Source: Escherichia phage vB_EcoM_ESCO56
Sequence record: OM386665.1
Length of the DNA: 64,000 nucleotides
Direction: 5' to 3' (one strand)
Numbering within the stretch: the first letter of the stretch is position 1; every line of letters begins with the position of its first letter. The notes below the pieces were generated by a model, which made no database searches, was not told the origin of the DNA, and saw nothing but the letters and a program-made list of their open reading frames with translations. Both the position numbers and the translations under genes were made by a program. Shown piece by piece: positions 3,919 through 40,120 of the stretch.

Positions 3919-3994
3919 TGGAGAATCCGAAGGGACTTGAACCCTTATAAACCTGTTTTGCAGACAGGCACATATCCATTTCTGTCACGGATTC
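3919..3994 (-). tRNA. tRNA-Cys (anticodon GCA)
   Basis: Hand-folded: acceptor GAATCCG/CGGATTC, anticodon loop CTGCAAA, T-arm AAGGG-TTCAAGT-CCCTT, discriminator U, encoded CCA. Confidence 0.8.
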
Positions 3995-3999
3995 AAAAT

Positions 4000-4092
4000 T
4001 GGAGGAAGATACCAGACTTGAACTGGTACACCGATTTCTCAGCTACTGGCAGTTTAGCAAACTGCTCCCTTACCTTTTAGGGTTAATCTTCC
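4000..4092 (-). tRNA. tRNA-Ser (anticodon GCU), class II with long variable arm
   Basis: Acceptor GGAAGAT/ATCTTCC, 3-bp D-stem, anticodon stem GCAGT/ACTGC with loop TTGCTAA, about 21-nt variable arm, T-loop TTCAAGT, encoded CCA. Confidence 0.7.
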
Positions 4093-4093
4093 A

Positions 4094-4828
4094 TTATCTT
4101 TGTAATGCGCTCTTCATTTCTGGTGTTGCAATAGTATCAATCACACCAGTTTTACAAGCATCATCAAACCAGTCTGGTAAGATACCTGCTAAGAACCCAT
4201 TGATATTCGTTTTAAGGTACTCTGCAATAAGGGCAGCTTCTTCTTCAATCATCTGCACAACTTCATCTGCATAAGCTGTAATCTTTGAGATACCTTCATT
4301 AATCTTACTAACAGCCTGATTAGCTAAATCAGAAATAGTCTCAAGACCCTCATCAATAGCGTCTTGTAAGTCACTTAACACACCGTTAACACTGTCTAGT
4401 GTGCTGTTAATCATGTCAATAGCTTGCTGACCATACTCTGTAGCAACACCCATAATACCACTAAATGGTGTACAACCAACTTGTTCTCCTGCTGCACCCA
4501 TAACATTGGAGTATCCCTTTGCTACCTGCATACGTGATGAAAACTCATCAATAGACTTTTGACCGTAGTCTGTTAGGGTCTTAGTAGTTGCTGTAGTGCT
4601 TGTAAGGCTTGTTGTAAAACTGTTTAGAAGGACTGTTGTAAGTCCAGCAGCAACAAGCTTCTCCTTCATTGTAGGGTCTGTTACAGAGCTAATAGAGCTT
4701 ACAAGTGATGTAGAGGCAGCTACGGTTCCACCGAGAACTGCTGCACCAGTAATAAGTGGGTTAGAAAACCCTCTACCGGTTTTTAAGAGATTAAAAATCT
4801 CCTTACCTTGTTCTGTCATCTCTTTCAT
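4094..4828 (-). CDS. hypothetical protein (Ser/Thr-rich, coiled-coil C-terminus)
   Basis: Track ORF 4094..4876 overlaps the tRNA at 4845-4923; trimmed to ATG at 4828 (MKEMTEQ...) with AAAGGTG RBS. Confidence 0.55.
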   Translation of the reverse strand: MKEMTEQGKEIFNLLKTGRGFSNPLITGAAVLGGTVAASTSLVSSISSVTDPTMKEKLVAAGLTTVLLNSFTTSLTSTTATTKTLTDYGQKSIDEFSSRMQVAKGYSNVMGAAGEQVGCTPFSGIMGVATEYGQQAIDMINSTLDSVNGVLSDLQDAIDEGLETISDLANQAVSKINEGISKITAYADEVVQMIEEEAALIAEYLKTNINGFLAGILPDWFDDACKTGVIDTIATPEMKSALQR

Positions 4829-4844
4829 TAAGCACCTTTGAAAT

Positions 4845-4923
4845 TGGTACTCCATATCGGATTCGAACCGATACATAACACAGATTTTAAGTCTGGCCTC
4901 TCTGCCAATTGGAGTAATGGAGC
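4845..4923 (-). tRNA. tRNA with anticodon UAA (Leu-decoding) but class-I length
   Basis: Acceptor GCTCCAT/ATGGAGT, Leu-like D-arm (3-bp stem, loop CAATTGGCAGA), anticodon loop CTTAAAA, short variable loop, T-arm ATCGG-TTCGAAT-CCGAT, A73, CCA. Confidence 0.65.
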
Positions 4924-4925
4924 AT

Positions 4926-5001
4926 TGGCGGGGGATGTTGGAATTGAACCAACTTCTTCGATTTCAAAGACCGAGGTTTTAACCTTGTAAACTAATCCCC
5001 T
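4926..5001 (-). tRNA. tRNA-Gln (anticodon UUG)
   Basis: Anticodon stem TCGGT/ATCGA with loop CTTTGAA, T-arm GTTGG-TTCAATT-CCAAC, discriminator G; 1:72 apparently unpaired. Confidence 0.75.
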
Positions 5002-5009
5002 TTAAATCT

Positions 5010-5567
5010 TTACTTTCTCAGTGGATGAATAAAGAATGCCAACATAACTCTTTCCCTTGAGAATGCTCTTTCTTCTGGGACAACGCTTTTTAGTTTCCAT
5101 CCAATATAAATTCTCCAGTAAAACTGTTTACCAAAGATTTTAATTGATGGGATAAAAGCGAATAATCCCCAAGCATTGCTATTCCACATTAGGAGATAAC
5201 CAGTCTGATTATCTTCAGGGTCAGAACTTACGTTGATATTACCTTTCCACTTAGTAACATCTTTTACATCTCTTCCTAATACATGGTAAGAGAAGTTATA
5301 AGCTTTGTTTCTCCAGAGCCATCCAACTCTCTGCATGTAGACACCCAGCTTACCAATCTCTCTAATCTTAGCCCAGCGTTTGACGTGGCCTTCATCACCA
5401 TCAATCGGGTTGTCATAGGTCTCCATCCATCTGAATCCAAAAGGTAGATGTCCTTTCTTCTCGCTGTAGAATGGAACCACGAAAGGTGCTAAGATGACTG
5501 CTAGGGTTGCTGCAAATGGTTCTAGTAAAGCTAGGAAAATCCATGAAGCATACTTCAAATATCTCAT
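5010..5567 (-). CDS. hypothetical protein (hydrophobic N-terminus, probable membrane protein)
   Basis: 185 aa ORF with AAGAGG RBS 9 nt upstream of ATG at 5567; N-terminal hydrophobic stretch WIFLALLEPFAATLAVILAPFVVPF. Confidence 0.6.
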   Translation of the reverse strand: MRYLKYASWIFLALLEPFAATLAVILAPFVVPFYSEKKGHLPFGFRWMETYDNPIDGDEGHVKRWAKIREIGKLGVYMQRVGWLWRNKAYNFSYHVLGRDVKDVTKWKGNINVSSDPEDNQTGYLLMWNSNAWGLFAFIPSIKIFGKQFYWRIYIGWKLKSVVPEERAFSRERVMLAFFIHPLRK

Positions 5568-5586
5568 CTAAATAGCCTCTTAAGAT

Positions 5587-5664
5587 TGGTGTTCCAAGAC
5601 GGATTCGAACCGTCACTAATACAAGGTTTGAGCTTGCATCCTCTGCCAATTGGGATACTGGAAC
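5587..5664 (-). tRNA. tRNA with anticodon CAA (Leu-decoding) but class-I length
   Basis: Acceptor GTTCCAG/TTGGAAC, D-arm TCC-CAATTGGCAGA-GGA, anticodon stem GCAAG/CTTGT with loop CTCAAAC, T-arm GACGG-TTCGAAT-CCGTC, A73, CCA. Confidence 0.65.
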
Positions 5665-5665
5665 A

Positions 5666-5740
5666 TGGTACTCACTAAAGGACTTGAACCTTTTTCTTCA
5701 TCTTGTAAGGGTGATGTTTTACCATATAAACTAAGCGAGT
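5666..5740 (-). tRNA. tRNA-Val (anticodon UAC)
   Basis: Acceptor ACTCGCT/AGTGAGT, D-stem GTTT/AAAC, anticodon loop CTTACAA, T-arm AAAGG-TTCAAGT-CCTTT, A73, CCA. Confidence 0.75.
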
Positions 5741-5835
5741 GTAGAAGAGGTCTGAAGTTGTGCCGCTAACTCAACTCCGTGGAATTTGTTACGGTCTTCA
5801 GTTGACACCAGCGGTCTTTCACTTGACCTCTGAAT

Positions 5836-5912
5836 TGGTGCTGCTCACAGGACTTGAACCTGCATTTCCATCCTTACAAGGGATGTGTAATAGCCAATTA
5901 TACGAAAGCAGC
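5836..5912 (-). tRNA. tRNA-Thr (anticodon UGU)
   Basis: Acceptor GCTGCTT/GAGCAGC, anticodon stem CATCC/GGATG with loop CTTGTAA, T-loop TTCAAGT, A73, CCA. Confidence 0.75.
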
Positions 5913-5919
5913 ATTAATT

Positions 5920-5996
5920 TGGTACACCTAGAGAGATTCGAACTCACACTGAGCAGATTCTAAGTCTGCTGCCTCTACCAGTTGGGCTATAGGTGC
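5920..5996 (-). tRNA. tRNA with anticodon UAG (Leu-decoding) but class-I length
   Basis: Acceptor GCACCTA/TAGGTGT, D-arm GCC-CAACTGGTAGA-GGC, anticodon stem GCAGA/TCTGC with loop CTTAGAA, T-loop TTCGAAT, A73, CCA. Confidence 0.65.
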
Positions 5997-6074
5997 ATTA
6001 AATCTTTTTAGAGAACTTCTAAGAACCTAAGCAACAAGGTTCCACAACAAGCTGTAATAACCTTAGAAGCCCTC

Positions 6075-6250
6075 TAAAAAGACCTAAAAAGGTCTTTGCA
6101 TAGTCTTGTTTAATCCGGTGACTAGAACCTTTGGAGAGCTTGATATTATCTCTTCTCCGTGACACCTGCTAGGTGCTTTATGAGTGTGTACGACAATACA
6201 CGCGGGATACCAAAGCAACACCCTAATGAAGCTTGGCTTTAAATCTTATT
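6075..6250 (-). ncRNA. candidate small structured RNA between tRNA genes, ending in an intrinsic terminator
   Basis: No tRNA fold found. Minus-sense sequence carries hairpins GTGTA-TTGTCG-TACAC, CACC-TAGCA-GGTG, GGAGA..TCTCC, then AGACC-TTTTT-AGGTCT followed by TTTT (6075-6096). 5' end not defined. Confidence 0.3.
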
Positions 6251-6253
6251 AGG

Positions 6254-6341
6254 CGGTAAGTAAAGGAGTCGAACCCTCACCGTATCTCTACAGTGGCAAC
6301 TGTTTTCAAGACAGTTTGGCTACCATTAGCCGCTACCTACC
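6254..6341 (-). tRNA. tRNA-Ser (anticodon UGA), class II
   Basis: Acceptor GGTAGGT/ACTTACC, anticodon stem ACTGT/ACAGT with loop CTTGAAA, about 20-nt variable arm, T-loop TTCGACT, G73; CCA not fully encoded. Confidence 0.7.
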
Positions 6342-6354
6342 CCTAATAAGACTT

Positions 6355-6437
6355 TGGCATGGGACGGAGGAGTTGAACCCCTTTGAAACGGTGTTGGAAG
6401 CCGTTGCTCATGCCTTAGAGTCTTAACATCGTCCCAT
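6355..6437 (-). tRNA. tRNA candidate, anticodon probably CCA (Trp); D region about 7 nt longer than canonical
   Basis: Acceptor ATGGGAC/GTCCCAT, T-loop TTCAACT, G73, CCA; anticodon register inferred from distance to T-loop (loop TTCCAAC); D-arm could not be folded canonically. Confidence 0.4.
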
Positions 6438-6580
6438 ACTATAATTCGAAGCTTACCGTATTATCTCAACACTGTAAAGCCCCTTCTCAGATTATTTACA
6501 TGTTCTGGAAAACATGAGATACAGACCACCTCCCTACAGGAAGACCCGCTTAGGTCGTCTAAGTAATCTGCTAACTAAAT

Positions 6581-6662
6581 TGGTCGAGGCGGCAGGACTC
6601 GAACCCGCATACTCCACTTACTCGGTTAACGTCTGTTTAGAAGACAGATGAGATACGCCCCG
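6581..6662 (-). tRNA. tRNA-like element (acceptor and T-arm present, anticodon-like loop CUUCUAA; no D-arm resolved)
   Basis: Acceptor CGGGGCG/CGCCTCG with one G-U, T-arm GCGGG-TTCGAGT-CCTGC, A73, CCA; only internal hairpin is TCTGT-CTTCTAA-ACAGA placed too far 5' for a canonical tRNA. Confidence 0.3.
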
Positions 6663-6910
6663 TAATTATCTTTAAAGACTCTCTTAGAAAGCCCTTAAAG
6701 ATGCCCACCTTATTAATCATACCGTGGGCTAGTACGCCAAATTCTTTGATGAGGGATTGGAAGACCTCACTGGTGTTTAGCCTATCAAGCTACTGCCAGA
6801 AAAACATTGTCGTTTGCATTTATTTTAAATTTGCAAAATAGACGCTACGCAACGAAAACTAAGGGTACTATAAAGTGGTCACATCACTATTCTGCTACAC
6901 TTCCATTAAA

Positions 6911-7050
6911 TTATCTTTGTAGATAAGCTACCCAGACTTGCTTAAGGTCTGTAGCGATGTGACTTTTTGGGTTTAAATCTAGAATTTACCCTTTCACCCT
7001 TTGTGGTCGCATACTCACAGGTAAGCTTAATAACTTATCTACAAAGATAA
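6911..7050. repeat. long inverted repeat (17-bp perfect arms, about 106-bp spacer) in tRNA-array spacer
   Basis: TTATCTTTGTAGATAAG at 6911-6927 is the exact reverse complement of CTTATCTACAAAGATAA at 7034-7050. Confidence 0.8.
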
Positions 7051-7098
7051 TTACCAGACCGTTGTTTATCATCTTAACTAGATATCTCATAAAGTGTT

Positions 7099-7186
7099 TG
7101 GTGTGCCGTGTAGGAGTCGAACCTACCGAGTCTCAATGACAAGGGATTTACAGTCCCCACCGCTACCATCTACGGGATAACGACAC
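7099..7186 (-). tRNA. tRNA-Tyr (anticodon GUA), class II
   Basis: Acceptor GTGTCGT/ACGGCAC, anticodon stem GGGGA/TCCCT with loop CTGTAAA, about 14-nt variable arm, T-arm GTAGG-TTCGACT-CCTAC, A73, CCA. Confidence 0.8.
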
Positions 7187-7255
7187 ATTTAATTTCTATT
7201 CAGGCTAAGGACTTGCACCTTACAAATCGGTGAGCAATCGCTTCTCTCCTGAATT

Positions 7256-7332
7256 TGGCGGTTAGTCAGGGATTCGAACCCTGTGCCATTCGCTTAACAG
7301 GCGACCGCACATACCTTATGTGCTTCCTAACC
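7256..7332 (-). tRNA. tRNA-Asn (anticodon GUU)
   Basis: D-stem GCAC/GTGC, anticodon loop CTGTTAA, T-arm CAGGG-TTCGAAT-CCCTG, G73, CCA. Confidence 0.8.
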
Positions 7333-7416
7333 ATGTTTAGTATTACCAGACCGTATCTTTCAATTTTTCCGCTAAAAATTTAATAAACATTGCTGTAAAC
7401 GGTCTTCTGTAAAATT

Positions 7417-7493
7417 TGGAGGCGGGTGCAGGAGTCGAACCTGCCGATACCATGCTAATGAGACATGTGAGACGCCCTTTCTCTATACCCGCA
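7417..7493 (-). tRNA. tRNA with anticodon CAU (Met, fMet or Ile2)
   Basis: Anticodon stem CATGT/GCATG with loop CTCATTA (position 37 is U, unusual), T-arm GCAGG-TTCGACT-CCTGC, CCA. Confidence 0.65.
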
Positions 7494-7623
7494 ATTCTTA
7501 ATGACCAGACCAAATCTCTTCTTTGTCCGATTTACCTTCAGATGAATAAGATTAAGTTTGCTGTAATTGGTCTTCTGTCAAAACTGGCGTTCCAGAAGGG
7601 ATTTGTCTACTGGAACATTAATT

Positions 7624-7700
7624 TGGTCTCTGTTGGAGGACTTGAACCTCCGGCCTTACCGCCCCAAACGGAACGCTCTACCAAGCTGAGCTAAACAGAG
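7624..7700 (-). tRNA. tRNA-Pro (anticodon UGG)
   Basis: Acceptor CTCTGTT/AACAGAG, D-stem GCTC/GAGC, anticodon loop TTTGGGG (G37), T-arm GGAGG-TTCAAGT-CCTCC, A73, CCA. Confidence 0.8.
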
Positions 7701-7817
7701 ATAAACTTTTTAAACTCTATGTAACCACTTTAACACTATTTTTTAGTGATTGTCAAGAACTTTTTTAAAATATTTTCAGTATCTTAGAAAAGCTCTCGTT
7801 TCGTTTCTATGTAGAAC

Positions 7818-7846
7818 ATATTAAAGGGTATCAAACACATTGTCAA
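7818..7846 (-). promoter_or_regulatory. sigma70-type promoter for the tRNA array, embedded in a palindromic operator-like element
   Basis: Minus strand reads TTGACA-N17-TAATAT; the -35 and spacer are flanked by inverted repeat AAGGGTAT (7824-7831) / ATACCCTT (7846-7853). Confidence 0.55.
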
Positions 7847-7864
7847 TACCCTTTTTAAAACTTT

Positions 7865-9280
7865 TTACCAGATATAACGGTCAACCATTACTGCTTTGAG
7901 CATTACGCTGATTGGGTCAAACTTCTCACCACCAAGTAGAGCTTTTAAAGTGGCTGGAGAGAAACCAGATACCATTGCTACACCGTTATCCTTAACAGAC
8001 ACTTCGCAAGTACCATTACGGTTTGCTAAGTACCAGAATACCAGTTGTGGCATCTCATATCCAGCTTTTTTGTACTTACTCTGAATTTCTTCAAAGTTTG
8101 TACGACCGTTAGCTCCATCAACCTGATTGAACTCCATATCGGAGAAGATGATAAGCTTACTTGGCATATCTTTCTGAGTCAAGTTATTTCTTTTACCTGT
8201 CTCAAGAATGCGGTCAAAAGCTGCTTGTAAGTTAGTTGAGCCATATTCAACGTGTCGCATCACCTGACGATGACGGTTTCGTAAATCACCACTCAGTTCG
8301 ATGAAGTGAGGGTTTGTTGAATAAACCATTAACTCATTCTTAAAGCAACCTGTATTGCGTTCTGCTACATACAATGCAAGTGAAACACCAATATCAAGAG
8401 CAGTAATTGAACCAAAATTCACCCAAGACATTGAGCATGAAACATCAGACATACATAGGATGTTTTCACCTTCTGCCATCCAGTTTGGTAGTGCCTTCCA
8501 CTGCTCATTAGCAACATCTGCATTACCATACTTAACAGATTTAATCACATCGTATGGGTAAACAGCACCAGCATTAATCTTAGCCTCACCCTTTGATAAG
8601 GACTCGATGTAGGCTTTGTAGCGCTCTCCATCTTTACGGTTAAACAGCTTTTGGTAACGTGCAGCAGCAAGTGAAGGAACCTTACTGTAGTCAATCTTAC
8701 CAAACTCGTTAGCAGAGATTTTTTGCTCAACTGTATCAGATAATGCAGACAACAGTGCGCGGTACTCTTTCTCACTCAAGTTGGCAAACTTGCAGAAACG
8801 TTTTACAAACTGCTTATGACGTGGTTTGACTCGTGGTAACCACTTGGCTGCCAAACCTGCTGTTGCAGGGTCTAGTAATGCTGCTTCTAAATGCTTGAAG
8901 GCATCTGTCTCAAAACGAGTGCCTACGAAGATTTTGAAGTCATCAAAACGACCAAGTTCTGCAATCTTATCCATAATGCGAAGAACCTGTGTAGGCTCTA
9001 AAACTTTGTCTTCAATCGCTTGAAGCAAAACAGTTCTGAAGGCTTTACGCTCACCCATACCTTCTCGTACATCTCGCATGTGCAGTAAAATACGAACTGC
9101 AACATCAACATCCTCACGCAAAGCTTTGTAGAACAGGTCTGGTAAGATTTCTACGTTGCTACGGCTTGAACCAGCAGCTTTGTAAAAGTCTACAAGGGCA
9201 GACATTGATGAAGTATGGTTTACAGCACCATTTTCAGTTCGACCTGCATGAAGGTGCGCATGTTTAAATAACTCGCTCAT
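7865..9280 (-). CDS. vWA-domain protein with MIDAS motif; N-terminal region possibly TROVE-like (Ro60-like)
   Basis: 471 aa; C-terminal hydrophobic strand then DVSCS (DxSxS MIDAS) within ILCMSDVSCSMSW; N-terminal alpha-rich region with TENGA...ALVDFY. Ro60-like call is from recalled family features, not a search. Confidence 0.5.
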   Translation of the reverse strand: MSELFKHAHLHAGRTENGAVNHTSSMSALVDFYKAAGSSRSNVEILPDLFYKALREDVDVAVRILLHMRDVREGMGERKAFRTVLLQAIEDKVLEPTQVLRIMDKIAELGRFDDFKIFVGTRFETDAFKHLEAALLDPATAGLAAKWLPRVKPRHKQFVKRFCKFANLSEKEYRALLSALSDTVEQKISANEFGKIDYSKVPSLAAARYQKLFNRKDGERYKAYIESLSKGEAKINAGAVYPYDVIKSVKYGNADVANEQWKALPNWMAEGENILCMSDVSCSMSWVNFGSITALDIGVSLALYVAERNTGCFKNELMVYSTNPHFIELSGDLRNRHRQVMRHVEYGSTNLQAAFDRILETGKRNNLTQKDMPSKLIIFSDMEFNQVDGANGRTNFEEIQSKYKKAGYEMPQLVFWYLANRNGTCEVSVKDNGVAMVSGFSPATLKALLGGEKFDPISVMLKAVMVDRYIW

Positions 9281-9361
9281 ATTTTACTCTCTTCTCTTAT
9301 TTGTTGTTTGATGTGACAGACTTTAGAGTTACTTTGTAGAGTCTGTCAACATCTTTTAAAA

Positions 9362-9733
9362 TTATTTTTTGAGAGTTGCAACAGCAGAGAACGTTGGTTT
9401 GTTATCTGTCTGAGACTGACCAGCATTATCAGGAGCCTTCTTAGTGTCTGCTGCAAGTGCTTTCATCTCACCTGCTGAGTGAGTAAAGATAGTTTTACCG
9501 ACCTCAATCATACTCTTGATGGTTACGTCGTCTGTGTTTAACCCGAACTCTGCAAGCTTAGCAGCATCCCTTGTAACAATCGCTTCAAACAACTTTGCAG
9601 CAAACTCAGCAGAATTATCAATGGTCAGTTGAGCTTTTACGAGAGAGCTTTTGTTACGGGAGCCTTTTGGTCTTCCAGATGGGTTTCCAGATTGGCCTTT
9701 TTTAAACTGGCCTTTGTTTGTTCTGTTTTTCAT
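9362..9733 (-). CDS. hypothetical basic protein with N-terminal GNPSGRPKG motif (possible DNA-binding, terminase-small-subunit-like N-terminus)
   Basis: 123 aa; N-terminus KGQFKKGQSGNPSGRPKGSRN resembles a motif I recall from phage small terminase / DUF5681 proteins. Confidence 0.4.
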   Translation of the reverse strand: MKNRTNKGQFKKGQSGNPSGRPKGSRNKSSLVKAQLTIDNSAEFAAKLFEAIVTRDAAKLAEFGLNTDDVTIKSMIEVGKTIFTHSAGEMKALAADTKKAPDNAGQSQTDNKPTFSAVATLKK

Positions 9734-38607: not shown

Positions 38608-38923
38608 CTTGTTGTTCAGGTAAGTTCGCTAAGCTTACCCCGCTTTATTCAAGCTGCTTACTGTCGCCAGTAAGTCCAGACTATATCTTCTACTTATTTC
38701 TAAGTAGCGTACCATTTCGAGTCGCTTGACCCTACACCGCTACATTCATCACGGTTAGTCGTTCGGCATTTAGATGTACTCAAACTCATATTCGAAGTTA
38801 TTCGGTATGTAAGACTCCTACGTTGTATATTTTCTTACATCGTACATCATTTAGCACAGGATTGTCTACATCTGTAGAGTTTCCCTGTTTAGGCACGTTT
38901 TAGATGAGCTATAGAGCTTGTTA
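38608..38923 (-). ncRNA. group I self-splicing intron in nrdD (ORF-less)
   Basis: Separates two nrdD halves in different frames; contains P-like AACAGGGAAACTC, Q-like AATCCTGTGC, R-like GAACGACTAA and S-like AAGATATAGTC (R/S form GACUA/UAGUC P7); U before 5' splice site, G before proposed 3' splice site. Splice sites approximate. Confidence 0.7.
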
Positions 38924-40120
38924 ACCCATCGGTGAAATAACCTTACCAGAACGCTCAAAAGCCTCTGCTACAGCACCATGACCAGATACACTTAAGAAAT
39001 CTGGATACATTGCTTTAGAGCAACACTCAATGGCTTTACTGTACAGGTGTCCTTGACAGATATCCTCATCGTGTCTCTTCTGGTCATAAATATAAACCAG
39101 TTTAGGGAATACAACAGGCTTCTTGCTCTTACCTTGTCCATTCATACGAACATCTAGGAGAGTGCTCGCAATCATGTATTGCAGTCGGTTATCTTCATTA
39201 GACATATCTGAGTCAAGTAACCCGAATGTCAAAGTTGTGAATGCAAAATCCCCACGGCTACAAGGTACAGTATTTAGTTTCATTTCAAGTGACTGGAAAC
39301 CTTGAGTCAGTTCAATCTGTAGCTGCTCCATGACATAATTGTGGTAATGTTCTTTAGGAATACCATAAGATGCTGCTTTCTCAGCATGATAGCGTAGAGA
39401 CTTCTTAGCATACGGCACAAGTACCTTATCAATCTCTGCTAAAGTAAAACCACCAAATTGCTGTGCAGTTGCTGAAAGAACTACGTCACCAATAACCTGT
39501 AAGGCCGACAGTACAGACTTCGGTTCACAATATTCAATGCCAGACATTTCAAAGCCACCTTTCAGGACTTTACCAATGTCAAACAGACAACAGTTGATAC
39601 CACCAAAAATTAGGTCTCTTAAATCATGGATATAGATAAACCCTTTTTCAATGGCTTCAAGTTCCTCTGGTGTTAAATGGTACTGTTTAAAGATTTCTTT
39701 AGTCAGATAACCACGAATAATTGAGCCTTTTGTAGAAATTAAACTGCTGTCAAAGTTAGCATTCTCTCTGTCACCTAAGAAGAGTGTATCTTTGGTCTTC
39801 TGGTAAAGTTCATCCCAATTTTGAGCAACTTCTTTACGGTAATTTCTATATGTTGAGTAAGACTCATAAATCTCGTGGTTGACTTCTGCCAAAGCACCCT
39901 CAACAATACTGTGAATATCATTTACTGAAATGAGTAAATTATTCTGCTTAGTGGATTTTACCAGAACCCTCATAAATGCTGACTCAAGAGCTTGGGTAAC
40001 ATCTGGTGGAAGCTCTTTATAACCAACTCTGTTAGCTGACTTTGTGACTGCTGTTAAAACTTTTTTGATATCAGGTTCTTCGAGTGAGCCATTCTTTTTA
40101 ATAATCTGTACTTTGTTCAT
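38924..40120 (-). CDS. nrdD: anaerobic ribonucleotide reductase NrdD, exon 1
   Basis: 399 aa N-terminal part beginning with ATP-cone-like MNKVQIIKKNGSLEEPDIKKV; spliced product predicted about 714 aa. Confidence 0.8.

Follow-up and report, generated by a model that had tools for sequence, protein, structure and literature searches.

A Ro60-like protein encoded beside a Felixounavirus tRNA array and a candidate class of Y-like partner RNAs

A gene for a 471-residue protein (7865..9280, minus strand) lies next to the tRNA array in a 64,000-nucleotide stretch of Escherichia phage vB_EcoM_ESCO56 (record OM386665.1), the whole of which is referred to here as the window. The protein is the ortholog of gp130 of phage Bas63, and structure prediction identifies it as a divergent member of the Ro60/Rsr type, in which a ring of alpha-helical repeats is closed by a von Willebrand factor A (vWA) domain with a metal-ion-dependent adhesion site (MIDAS). 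Genes of its family, DUF2828/DUF7788, are accompanied by a covarying RNA motif in phages of Proteobacteria, Campylobacter, Firmicutes and Actinobacteria, often inside tRNA arrays, and two copies of this motif are present in the array of the window. We consider it probable that this gp130 ortholog forms ribonucleoproteins with the adjacent phage RNAs and acts on RNA metabolism.

Results

Sequence and predicted fold of the Ro-like protein

A Pfam scan of the open reading frame product identified DUF7788 (PF25043) at residues 274–455 (5e-43, 147 bits, cut-off 27.1) and DUF2828 (PF11443; 1e-29, 104 bits, cut-off 29), while PHROG 850, annotated as ‘RNA-binding protein’, covers residues 1–471 (7e-184, 613 bits). 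The DUF7788 match delimits the vWA domain (7916..8461, minus strand), which contains the sequence MSDVSCSMSW with the MIDAS motif DVSCS at residues 279–283 (8432–8446, minus strand). In an alignment of 34 relatives with 41–88% identity, the complete MIDAS (DxSxS...T...D) is invariant, comprising D279, S281, S283, T349 and D381, and profile alignments pair it with the DVSASM of Ro60. An earlier note, made from the sequence alone, had recognized a vWA-like C-terminal domain in the DVSCS motif, and this assignment is borne out by the full MIDAS and the DUF7788 match.

An AlphaFold2 model calculated from the 34-sequence alignment (predicted local distance difference test score 87, predicted template modelling score 0.88) has 16 helices within residues 28–263, in agreement with the alpha-rich N-terminal region expected from the sequence, followed by an alpha/beta domain at residues 274–455. 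The helical, TROVE-like repeat domain is encoded at 8486..9280 (minus strand; approximately residues 1–265). When the model was compared with the PDB using Foldseek, the top 11 hits were all Ro60, Rsr or ‘TROVE domain’ entries, aligned over the full length with E-values of 1e-8 to 3e-6 and TM-scores of 0.51–0.60, except for Deinococcus radiodurans Rsr at 0.37. Bare vWA domains ranked below the Ro60-type entries and appeared only at E > 1e-3. The predicted structure thus consists of HEAT-type helical repeats followed by a C-terminal vWA domain, and can be superposed as a whole onto Ro60.

At the sequence level the relationship is more restricted. The TROVE alignment used for hhalign was composed of human Ro60, whose sequence agrees with PDB entry 9nen_A at 537 of 538 residues, and five phage TROVE proteins. 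The family profile matched it with a probability of 84% (E 7e-6), residues 217–445 pairing with Ro60 residues 296–529, a region that corresponds to the last TROVE helices (‘RIHP’ versus ‘VYPYD’) and the vWA domain. With the single human Ro60 sequence, the vWA part alone was aligned (44.6%). Neither the single sequence nor the family profile found anything significant in PDB sequence searches, a stretch around the Ro60 MIDAS remaining below threshold at E 1.4, and NCBIfam gave no match for the protein. It is Ro60-like by predicted fold and partly by profile, and lies outside Pfam TROVE. The Ro60-like domain order proposed in the earlier note is accordingly retained on the strength of the predicted structure, the Foldseek hits and the hhalign match, but not as a match to the Pfam TROVE signature.

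Orthologs and distribution

The window derives from a Felixounavirus, being 95–98% identical to many genomes of this group (Felix-O1-like myoviruses of E. coli and Salmonella); the ESCO50 genome is 98.4% identical to the window region. Records of these phages annotate the gene as ‘vWFA protein’, ‘RNA-binding protein’ or ‘hypothetical protein’. Bas63 gp130 (bas63_0130) has the same length of 471 residues as the window protein, shares 96.6% identity with it and has identical neighbours, both genes being located between a DUF5681 gene and tRNA-Pro. A 2024 PhageMaP preprint described gp130 as Ro60-like by structure and as lying upstream of tRNA genes, some of which may be Y RNAs (PMC11482910). Deletion of gp130 renders Bas63 sensitive to the Ppl defence system (ATPase and PHP domain), and complementation rescues the phage; gp130 alone, plasmid-borne or in the T7 genome, shields T7 from Ppl (PMC11482910). 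The existence of this Ro60-like protein is therefore already known.

Relatives of the window protein are present in 709 of 50,697 phage records, and more than 3,300 protein clusters match the family at E ≤ 1e-3. The phages concerned include Felixounavirus, KVP40-like Vibrio, Campylobacter, Listeria, Staphylococcus, Enterococcus, Bacillus, jumbo and Mycobacterium phages, the relatives in the last being annotated as ‘Ro-like RNA binding protein’. The lineage is common in large tRNA-carrying phages, and canonical TROVE Ro60 proteins are found in a further 358 phage records, mostly of actinophages. With these numbers, and with the near-identical gp130 already published, the earlier view that a phage-encoded Ro60-like module would be unusual has to be given up. 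A literature search for DUF2828 returned incidental mentions only, in plants (potato, wheat, poplar and Casuarina) and in a tardigrade genome, which indicates that the Ro-like DUF2828 lineage is not confined to phages.

An RNA motif linked to the gene family

Comparison of the RNAs adjoining DUF2828 genes across phyla yielded a motif in which an invariant UACAGCAA comes 3′ of the 5′ strand of a 7-bp helix and an AU-rich interior separates it from the return strand, behind which stands an invariant G. In detail, the consensus reads 5′-(A)A, followed by the helix, which mostly starts with A-G-R, and then by N-U-A-CAGCAA; the G-poor, AU-rich interior spans 25 to more than 100 nt and sometimes carries a tRNA-like module, after which the return strand and the G complete the element. 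Two models of the motif were built, R2 from 8 seeds and R3 from 29 sequences.

R3 returned 68 hits in 731 kb searched on both strands at E ≤ 0.1. All 68 are on the strand of the gene, and they are distributed over 43 of 72 DUF2828 loci; five canonical-TROVE loci gave none. Across the hit alignment, conservation is 96–100% for CAGCAA and 100% for the 3′ G. The helix covaries: 99.1% of its cells are paired, compared to 61.5% in shuffles, and 192 cells carry double changes, compared to 54, these counts being taken from a model-fitted alignment that favours structure. The covariation score of 1.01 was reached in none of 500 shuffles, which gave 0.23, and fell to 0.07–0.21 when the partner columns were slid. 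R3 is AU-biased, and GC-rich copies from mycobacteriophages that can be recognized by eye escape it.

A regular expression offered a second view of the linkage. Its first form, with 6-bp stems, was too permissive (315 forward versus 189 reverse matches) and was tightened; the tightened pattern placed an element within 700 nt of the gene on its own strand in 55 of 74 non-Felixounavirus loci, and on the opposite strand in 11 of 74. As negative controls, neither positions 1–50 kb of Bas63 nor the T5 tRNA region (35 kb with 25 tRNAs, several annotated stable RNAs and no DUF2828 gene) contained an R3 hit.

The association was also examined in reverse, by running the exact pattern AGGNNNNTTACAGCAAAC through IMG/VR, which gave 123 matches in 120 stretches. 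A helix plus G is formed by 57 of the 123, and for 26 of these 57 the fetched DNA includes a DUF2828 gene, which is always on the same strand and in most cases 35–600 nt away. By comparison, such a gene accompanies 4 of the 66 matches that lack the helix. At least one element without a neighbouring gene (L168; loci are denoted by L numbers) belongs to a contig on which the gene is present at another place (L080). The motif is thus tied both to the gene and to tRNA arrays, and is not strictly gene-adjacent. It was not found in Rfam 15 or in the searchable literature (open-access papers and bioRxiv), and is apparently undescribed.

YrlA-type RNAs beside the gene

In two phages of the family, the Rfam YrlA model itself matches next to the Ro-like gene. 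One match is located 240 nt upstream of the gene in Enterococcus phage EfV12-phi1 (45.2 bits, E 9e-9 locally, accompanied by weaker copies), and the other 130 nt downstream in Mycobacterium phage Snenia (39.3 bits). Both are on the gene strand, with local E-values of 1e-7 to 1e-9 and scores below the gathering score of 69 bits. In both, T arm, hairpin and D arm follow each other in the diagnostic order, and the helix and ACAGCAA of the new motif enclose each match.

A covariance model of the permuted tRNA-like core (R1) extended this observation. Since R1 also cross-hits tandem tRNA junctions, with up to 42 bits, its matches were counted only where no tRNAs flank them. Such non-tRNA instances occur directly beside DUF2828 genes of metagenomic phages (L027, L029, L033, L049, L052 and L054), beside canonical TROVE genes (HyRo, Zooman) and in most Felixounaviruses, including Bas63 (L004 10824–10897, 31.5 bits).

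Elements in the window and in other Felixounaviruses

The 64-kb window contains exactly two R3 hits, both of them in the array beside the gene and both with all the features of the helix and UACAGCAA elements. Element A (7503..7579, minus strand; R3 at 7505–7575, 38.5 bits, E 9e-5) is located between tRNA-Pro and tRNA-Met. Its outer helix GAC/GUC is separated by an AGA/G internal loop from the inner helix AGACCAA/UUGGUCU, which is followed by UUACAGCAA and an AU-rich interior, and it is kept in 16 of 16 Felixounavirus loci. Element B (7344..7411, minus strand; R3 at 7346–7407, 51.6 bits, E 1.4e-7), between tRNA-Met and tRNA-Asn, has the outer helix UAC/GUA, the same AGA/G loop and the inner helix AGACCGU/ACGGUCU, again followed by UUACAGCAA; its pattern GAAGACC..GGTCTGG was found once, with none expected.

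A typical Felixounavirus has four element classes, the other two being C, which follows tRNA-Asp, and D, which measures 130–139 nt and contains a T arm, a hairpin and a D arm, that is, a permuted tRNA-like module of the YrlA type. The classes share a covarying outer helix (UAC/GUA, GAC/GUC or AGC/GCU) across the AGA/G internal loop. Element D is present in most Felixounaviruses and is intact in Bas63 (L004 10776–10914), where it is closed by AGACCGUU/AACGGUCU. Its hairpin differs wholly between lineages and is still paired (ACUCGGC/GUCGAGU, ACACG/CGUGU and ACCCUUC/GAAGGGU), with double changes at three pairs and 99.5% of cells paired among 7 sequences only.

While Bas63 has all four candidate elements, at record positions of about 82066–82145, 82233–82303, 82688–82768 and 82775–82913, the window retains A, B and a truncated D. 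The stem and flanks of Bas63 element D recur in inter-tRNA spacers of the window, and alignment with Bas63 and ESCO50 located a deletion junction at 7078–7097 followed by the 3′ remnant of the element, ttaagatgataaacaacggtctggtaatt (together 7050..7097, minus strand). The 3′ strand is kept at approximately 7050–7077, and the 5′ strand and the module of T arm, hairpin and D arm are gone. Relative to Bas63, about 330 nt after tRNA-Tyr are absent from both the window and ESCO50, and with them tRNA-Asp, element C and all of element D except its 3′ strand. A YrlA-type stem with a permuted tRNA-like module is accordingly absent from the window, where R1 gives tRNA-junction matches only, of at most 16 bits. 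The Y-RNA-like RNAs that the earlier note had anticipated in the spacers are therefore represented by the two elements of the family-specific motif, but not by anything that the Rfam Y_RNA and YrlA models recognize; the tRNA-like domain anticipated among them belonged to element D, the member deleted here.

The tRNA array and its surroundings

ARAGORN identified 13 tRNAs at 3919–7700, all on the strand of the Ro-like gene. The gene lies directly upstream of this array, as had been noted from the sequence: the first tRNA, tRNA-Pro(UGG) (7624..7700, minus strand; also an Rfam tRNA match of 57.7 bits), begins 165 nt past the end of the gene. The intervening gap (7727..7854, minus strand) contains two sigma-70-like matches, at 7846–7818 and 7756–7727, and a 12-bp hairpin at 7854–7823. 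These consensus matches suggest that the array, including its Y-like RNAs, may have its own promoters. Upstream of the gene, a further sigma-70-like consensus match, TTGACA-18-TAAAGT (10 of 12 positions), is located at 9320..9349 (minus strand). A 123-residue basic protein (DUF5681 in RefSeq; 9362–9733, minus strand) is encoded immediately upstream of the Ro-like gene, as it is in each Felixounavirus inspected (Mushroom, ESCO50 and Bas63).

Compared to Bas63, the array of the window (5944–7616, minus strand) is reduced by four deletions. In addition to the one that removed elements C and D, these affect tRNA-Glu internally, most of the tRNA-Lys/Met/Ile block, and the Lys/Ala/Gly block near 5944–5996. 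Of tRNA-Glu, an acceptor-stem hairpin and GCCA are left (7585..7616, minus strand), the intact copies in Bas63 and L020 revealing an internal deletion of about 45 nt. ARAGORN calls tRNA-Met(CAU) at 7417..7493 (minus strand). The array does contain non-tRNA and aberrant pieces, as the sequence had first suggested, but several of its supposedly non-canonical tRNA-like spacers are merely relics of tRNA deletion.

Other structured sequences were noted in the same region. A tRNA-like sequence at 6584–6662 (minus strand) scores 33.4 bits with Rfam, has no ARAGORN call and is the positional counterpart of tRNA-Arg(AGA) of Bas63. A hairpin of about 150 nt (6903–7052, minus strand) has a 24-bp terminal stem and a minimum free energy of −45.9 kcal/mol (z −5.7 versus shuffles); it is kept in Felixounaviruses, abuts the 3′ end of element D, has no Rfam match, and is overlapped in Bas63 by a small annotated coding sequence on the opposite strand. 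Outside the array, a group I intron is located at 38657–38981 (minus strand; Rfam 53.5 bits, gathering 50). It may correspond to the annotated split of Bas63 nrdD around a homing-endonuclease open reading frame.

Genomic context in other phages

In 7 of 7 cultured lineages inspected, the Ro-like gene adjoins a tRNA array on the same strand. Among metagenomic loci, 15 of 67 have a tRNA array within 4 kb of the gene, so adjacency to tRNAs is not universal. In Listeria phage List-36, genes for an HD phosphohydrolase, RtcB and an RNA ligase are located downstream of the Ro-like gene. The same phage has a match to ROOL RNA between its tRNA array and the Ro-like gene (L008 3426–3977; 91.5 bits with a gathering score of 99.1, E 4e-17), and three helix and ACAGCAA elements lie between this match and the gene. 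In Gordonia phage Boopy (L093 2959–7529), a canonical TROVE Ro gene is located directly upstream of tRNA-Asn, a transfer-messenger RNA and further tRNAs, a layout that matches that of the window despite the different protein family.

Discussion

Our favoured interpretation is that small phage RNAs encoded next to the gene most likely join the Ro-like protein in ribonucleoproteins, as Y RNAs join Ro60. These RNAs would be transcribed together with the tRNA array and would be defined by a terminal helix, a single-stranded UACAGCAA on its inner 5′ side and an invariant G on its outer 3′ side. In this arrangement, the UACAGCAA by the helix could take the role of the CGAA bulge in the ‘stem plus CGAA bulge’ of canonical Y RNAs, and some copies would add a permuted tRNA-like module of the YrlA type. 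During infection the ribonucleoprotein may act on RNA metabolism, whether by protecting the phage tRNA pool or controlling its quality or by modulating host RNases; the association with tRNA arrays and, in Listeria phages, with RtcB and RNA ligase genes points to such a role.

The proposed system resembles Ro60/Rsr systems (Xenopus Ro60, 1YVP; D. radiodurans Rsr, 2NVO; Salmonella Rsr with YrlA and YrlB) in the predicted architecture of a HEAT-type ring with a vWA/MIDAS domain, in the presence of partner-like RNAs nearby on the same strand, and in the occurrence of a long RNA form with a tRNA-like module and a short one without, as in YrlA and YrlB. The proximity of the Ro-like gene to RtcB and RNA ligase genes in some phages also recalls the established bacterial rsr-yrlBA-rtcBA operon (PMC4201824, PMC7790460). 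It differs from them in that the window protein is about 70 residues shorter, is 12% identical and has no Pfam TROVE signature, while its family’s RNAs carry UACAGCAA next to the helix where the Y RNAs of Ro60/Rsr have a GNCGAA/CGAA motif. The Rfam YrlA model misses the RNA versions of E. coli phages.

Among phages, another published parallel is phiRo60 of Thermus phage phiLo, which has two adjacent Y-like RNAs, Yrl1 and Yrl2, and structures in PDB entries 9KOP and 9L5Y (PMC12135203). That protein has a TROVE-domain annotation, its RNAs were chosen by their CGAA motif, and no link to a tRNA array was reported (PMC12135203). ‘Ro-like RNA binding proteins’ and YrlA RNAs of mycobacteriophages are in the literature (Pedulla 2003; Chen 2014, PMC4201824). 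The DUF2828 family of the window protein is represented in phages such as Snenia and Kingsolomon (34% identity, E 1e-72), where a YrlA-type RNA directly follows the gene, whereas in Bixzunavirus (Bxz1-type) phages the canonical TROVE type takes its place. Small stable RNAs among phage tRNAs, some of them tRNA-like, are likewise known as RNA I, III, IV, RNA1 and RNA2 of T5 and species 1 and 2 of T4. The T5 cluster (L217, record 28–42 kb) has eight annotated stable RNAs, some tRNA-like; it differs in that the motif model finds nothing there and the searched region contains no DUF2828 gene. For Bas63 itself, the preprint names no RNA (PMC11482910), and the specific candidate RNAs were defined in the present analysis.

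Several observations weigh against a Ro60-type ribonucleoprotein with these RNAs. On the side of the protein, Pfam at E ≤ 1 gives DUF7788 and DUF2828 only and thus no TROVE (PF05731) signature in the window protein, and the N-terminal 215 residues have no sequence-level TROVE match. On the side of the RNAs, Rfam 15 at E ≤ 1 returned tRNAs and the group I intron but no Y_RNA or YrlA in the array or the whole 64-kb window, and the Rfam YrlA model does not match Bas63 element D. In folding energy the short elements do not stand out (z −1.4 to −1.5), and the model-fitted alignment behind the covariation counts belongs here as well. As for the linkage, 29 of 72 DUF2828 loci are without an R3 hit, and 31 of the 57 well-formed elements of the reverse search have no DUF2828 gene in the fetched DNA. 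Because 20 of these 31 are inside large tRNA arrays, the motif could be a feature of such arrays. Furthermore, elements C and D are lost from the window phage and from ESCO50, both of which retain the gene, and the protection of T7 by gp130 alone implies that the anti-Ppl activity is independent of phage RNAs.

The main rival explanation builds on these last points. It holds that the Ro60-like protein works without dedicated partner RNAs, that the helix and ACAGCAA elements are signals for processing, stability or transcription of tRNA arrays, and that their closeness to the gene simply reflects its position beside tRNAs. The protein might then bind misfolded or 3′-tailed RNAs, or use its MIDAS face to inhibit Ppl directly. 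The action of gp130 by itself in T7 and the orphan elements within tRNA arrays are in line with this, as is the loss of two of four elements from the window phage, in which both remaining ones are inter-tRNA spacers. It is difficult to reconcile, however, with the many loci at which an element is located 10–400 nt from the gene with no tRNA within 4 kb (for example L031, L035, L036, L038, L039, L051, L053, L056 and L081), or with the T5 array, whose 25 tRNAs, without a DUF2828 gene, give no hit. In addition, orphan L168 comes from a contig that does encode the gene, and some copies are of the YrlA type, YrlA being a known Ro60 partner. We regard this explanation as rather unlikely.

Instead of being separate small RNAs, the elements might regulate the Ro-like mRNA in cis from its untranslated regions, for example as autoregulatory operators. 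Copies located 30–70 nt before the start codon (L027, L052, L033, L029 and Campylobacter CPX) or right after the stop codon would suit such a function. Elements, however, also occur in tandem sets of two to four on either side of the gene, among tRNAs at distances that reach a kilobase or more, and likewise in arrays that have no copy of the gene close by; a TATAAT box shortly precedes the L033 element, and some copies have tRNA-like modules resembling those of free-standing YrlA. These features speak for separate RNAs, and we judge a cis-regulatory role improbable. Least credible of all is a superficial resemblance, by which a vWA/MIDAS protein with an unrelated helical N-terminus, the case the earlier note had named as its own refutation, would merely look like Ro60: the unmatched Pfam TROVE signature, the lack of significant PDB sequence matches and the restriction of the single-sequence hhalign match (44.6%) to the vWA part would fit it, but the full-length Foldseek alignments to Ro60-type entries make it very hard to sustain.

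On the favoured interpretation of a ribonucleoprotein with adjacent phage RNAs, a wider proposal can be made, about which we are evenly divided. DUF2828/DUF7788 proteins may constitute a second, phage-centred Ro60-like lineage with its own class of Y-like RNAs, defined by the terminal helix, UACAGCAA, the 3′ G and an optional tRNA-like module, absent from Rfam 15, extending from mycobacteriophages to coliphages and built into tRNA arrays. Its ribonucleoprotein might guard or service the phage tRNA supply, or disarm host nucleases in counter-defence.

The present analysis contributes a concrete candidate for the RNA partner that the Ro-like protein has so far lacked, and the window phage, which has naturally lost the tRNA-like member, lends itself to direct comparison with Bas63. 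Should the protein bind these RNAs, the paradigm of Ro60 and Y RNA would reach about 1.4% of sequenced phages (709 of the 50,697 records in the searched collection), and some of the ‘extra’ stable RNAs that have long been unexplained in phage tRNA clusters would be accounted for. It would also supply an RNA handle on the way in which the Ro-like ribonucleoprotein helps against host defence.

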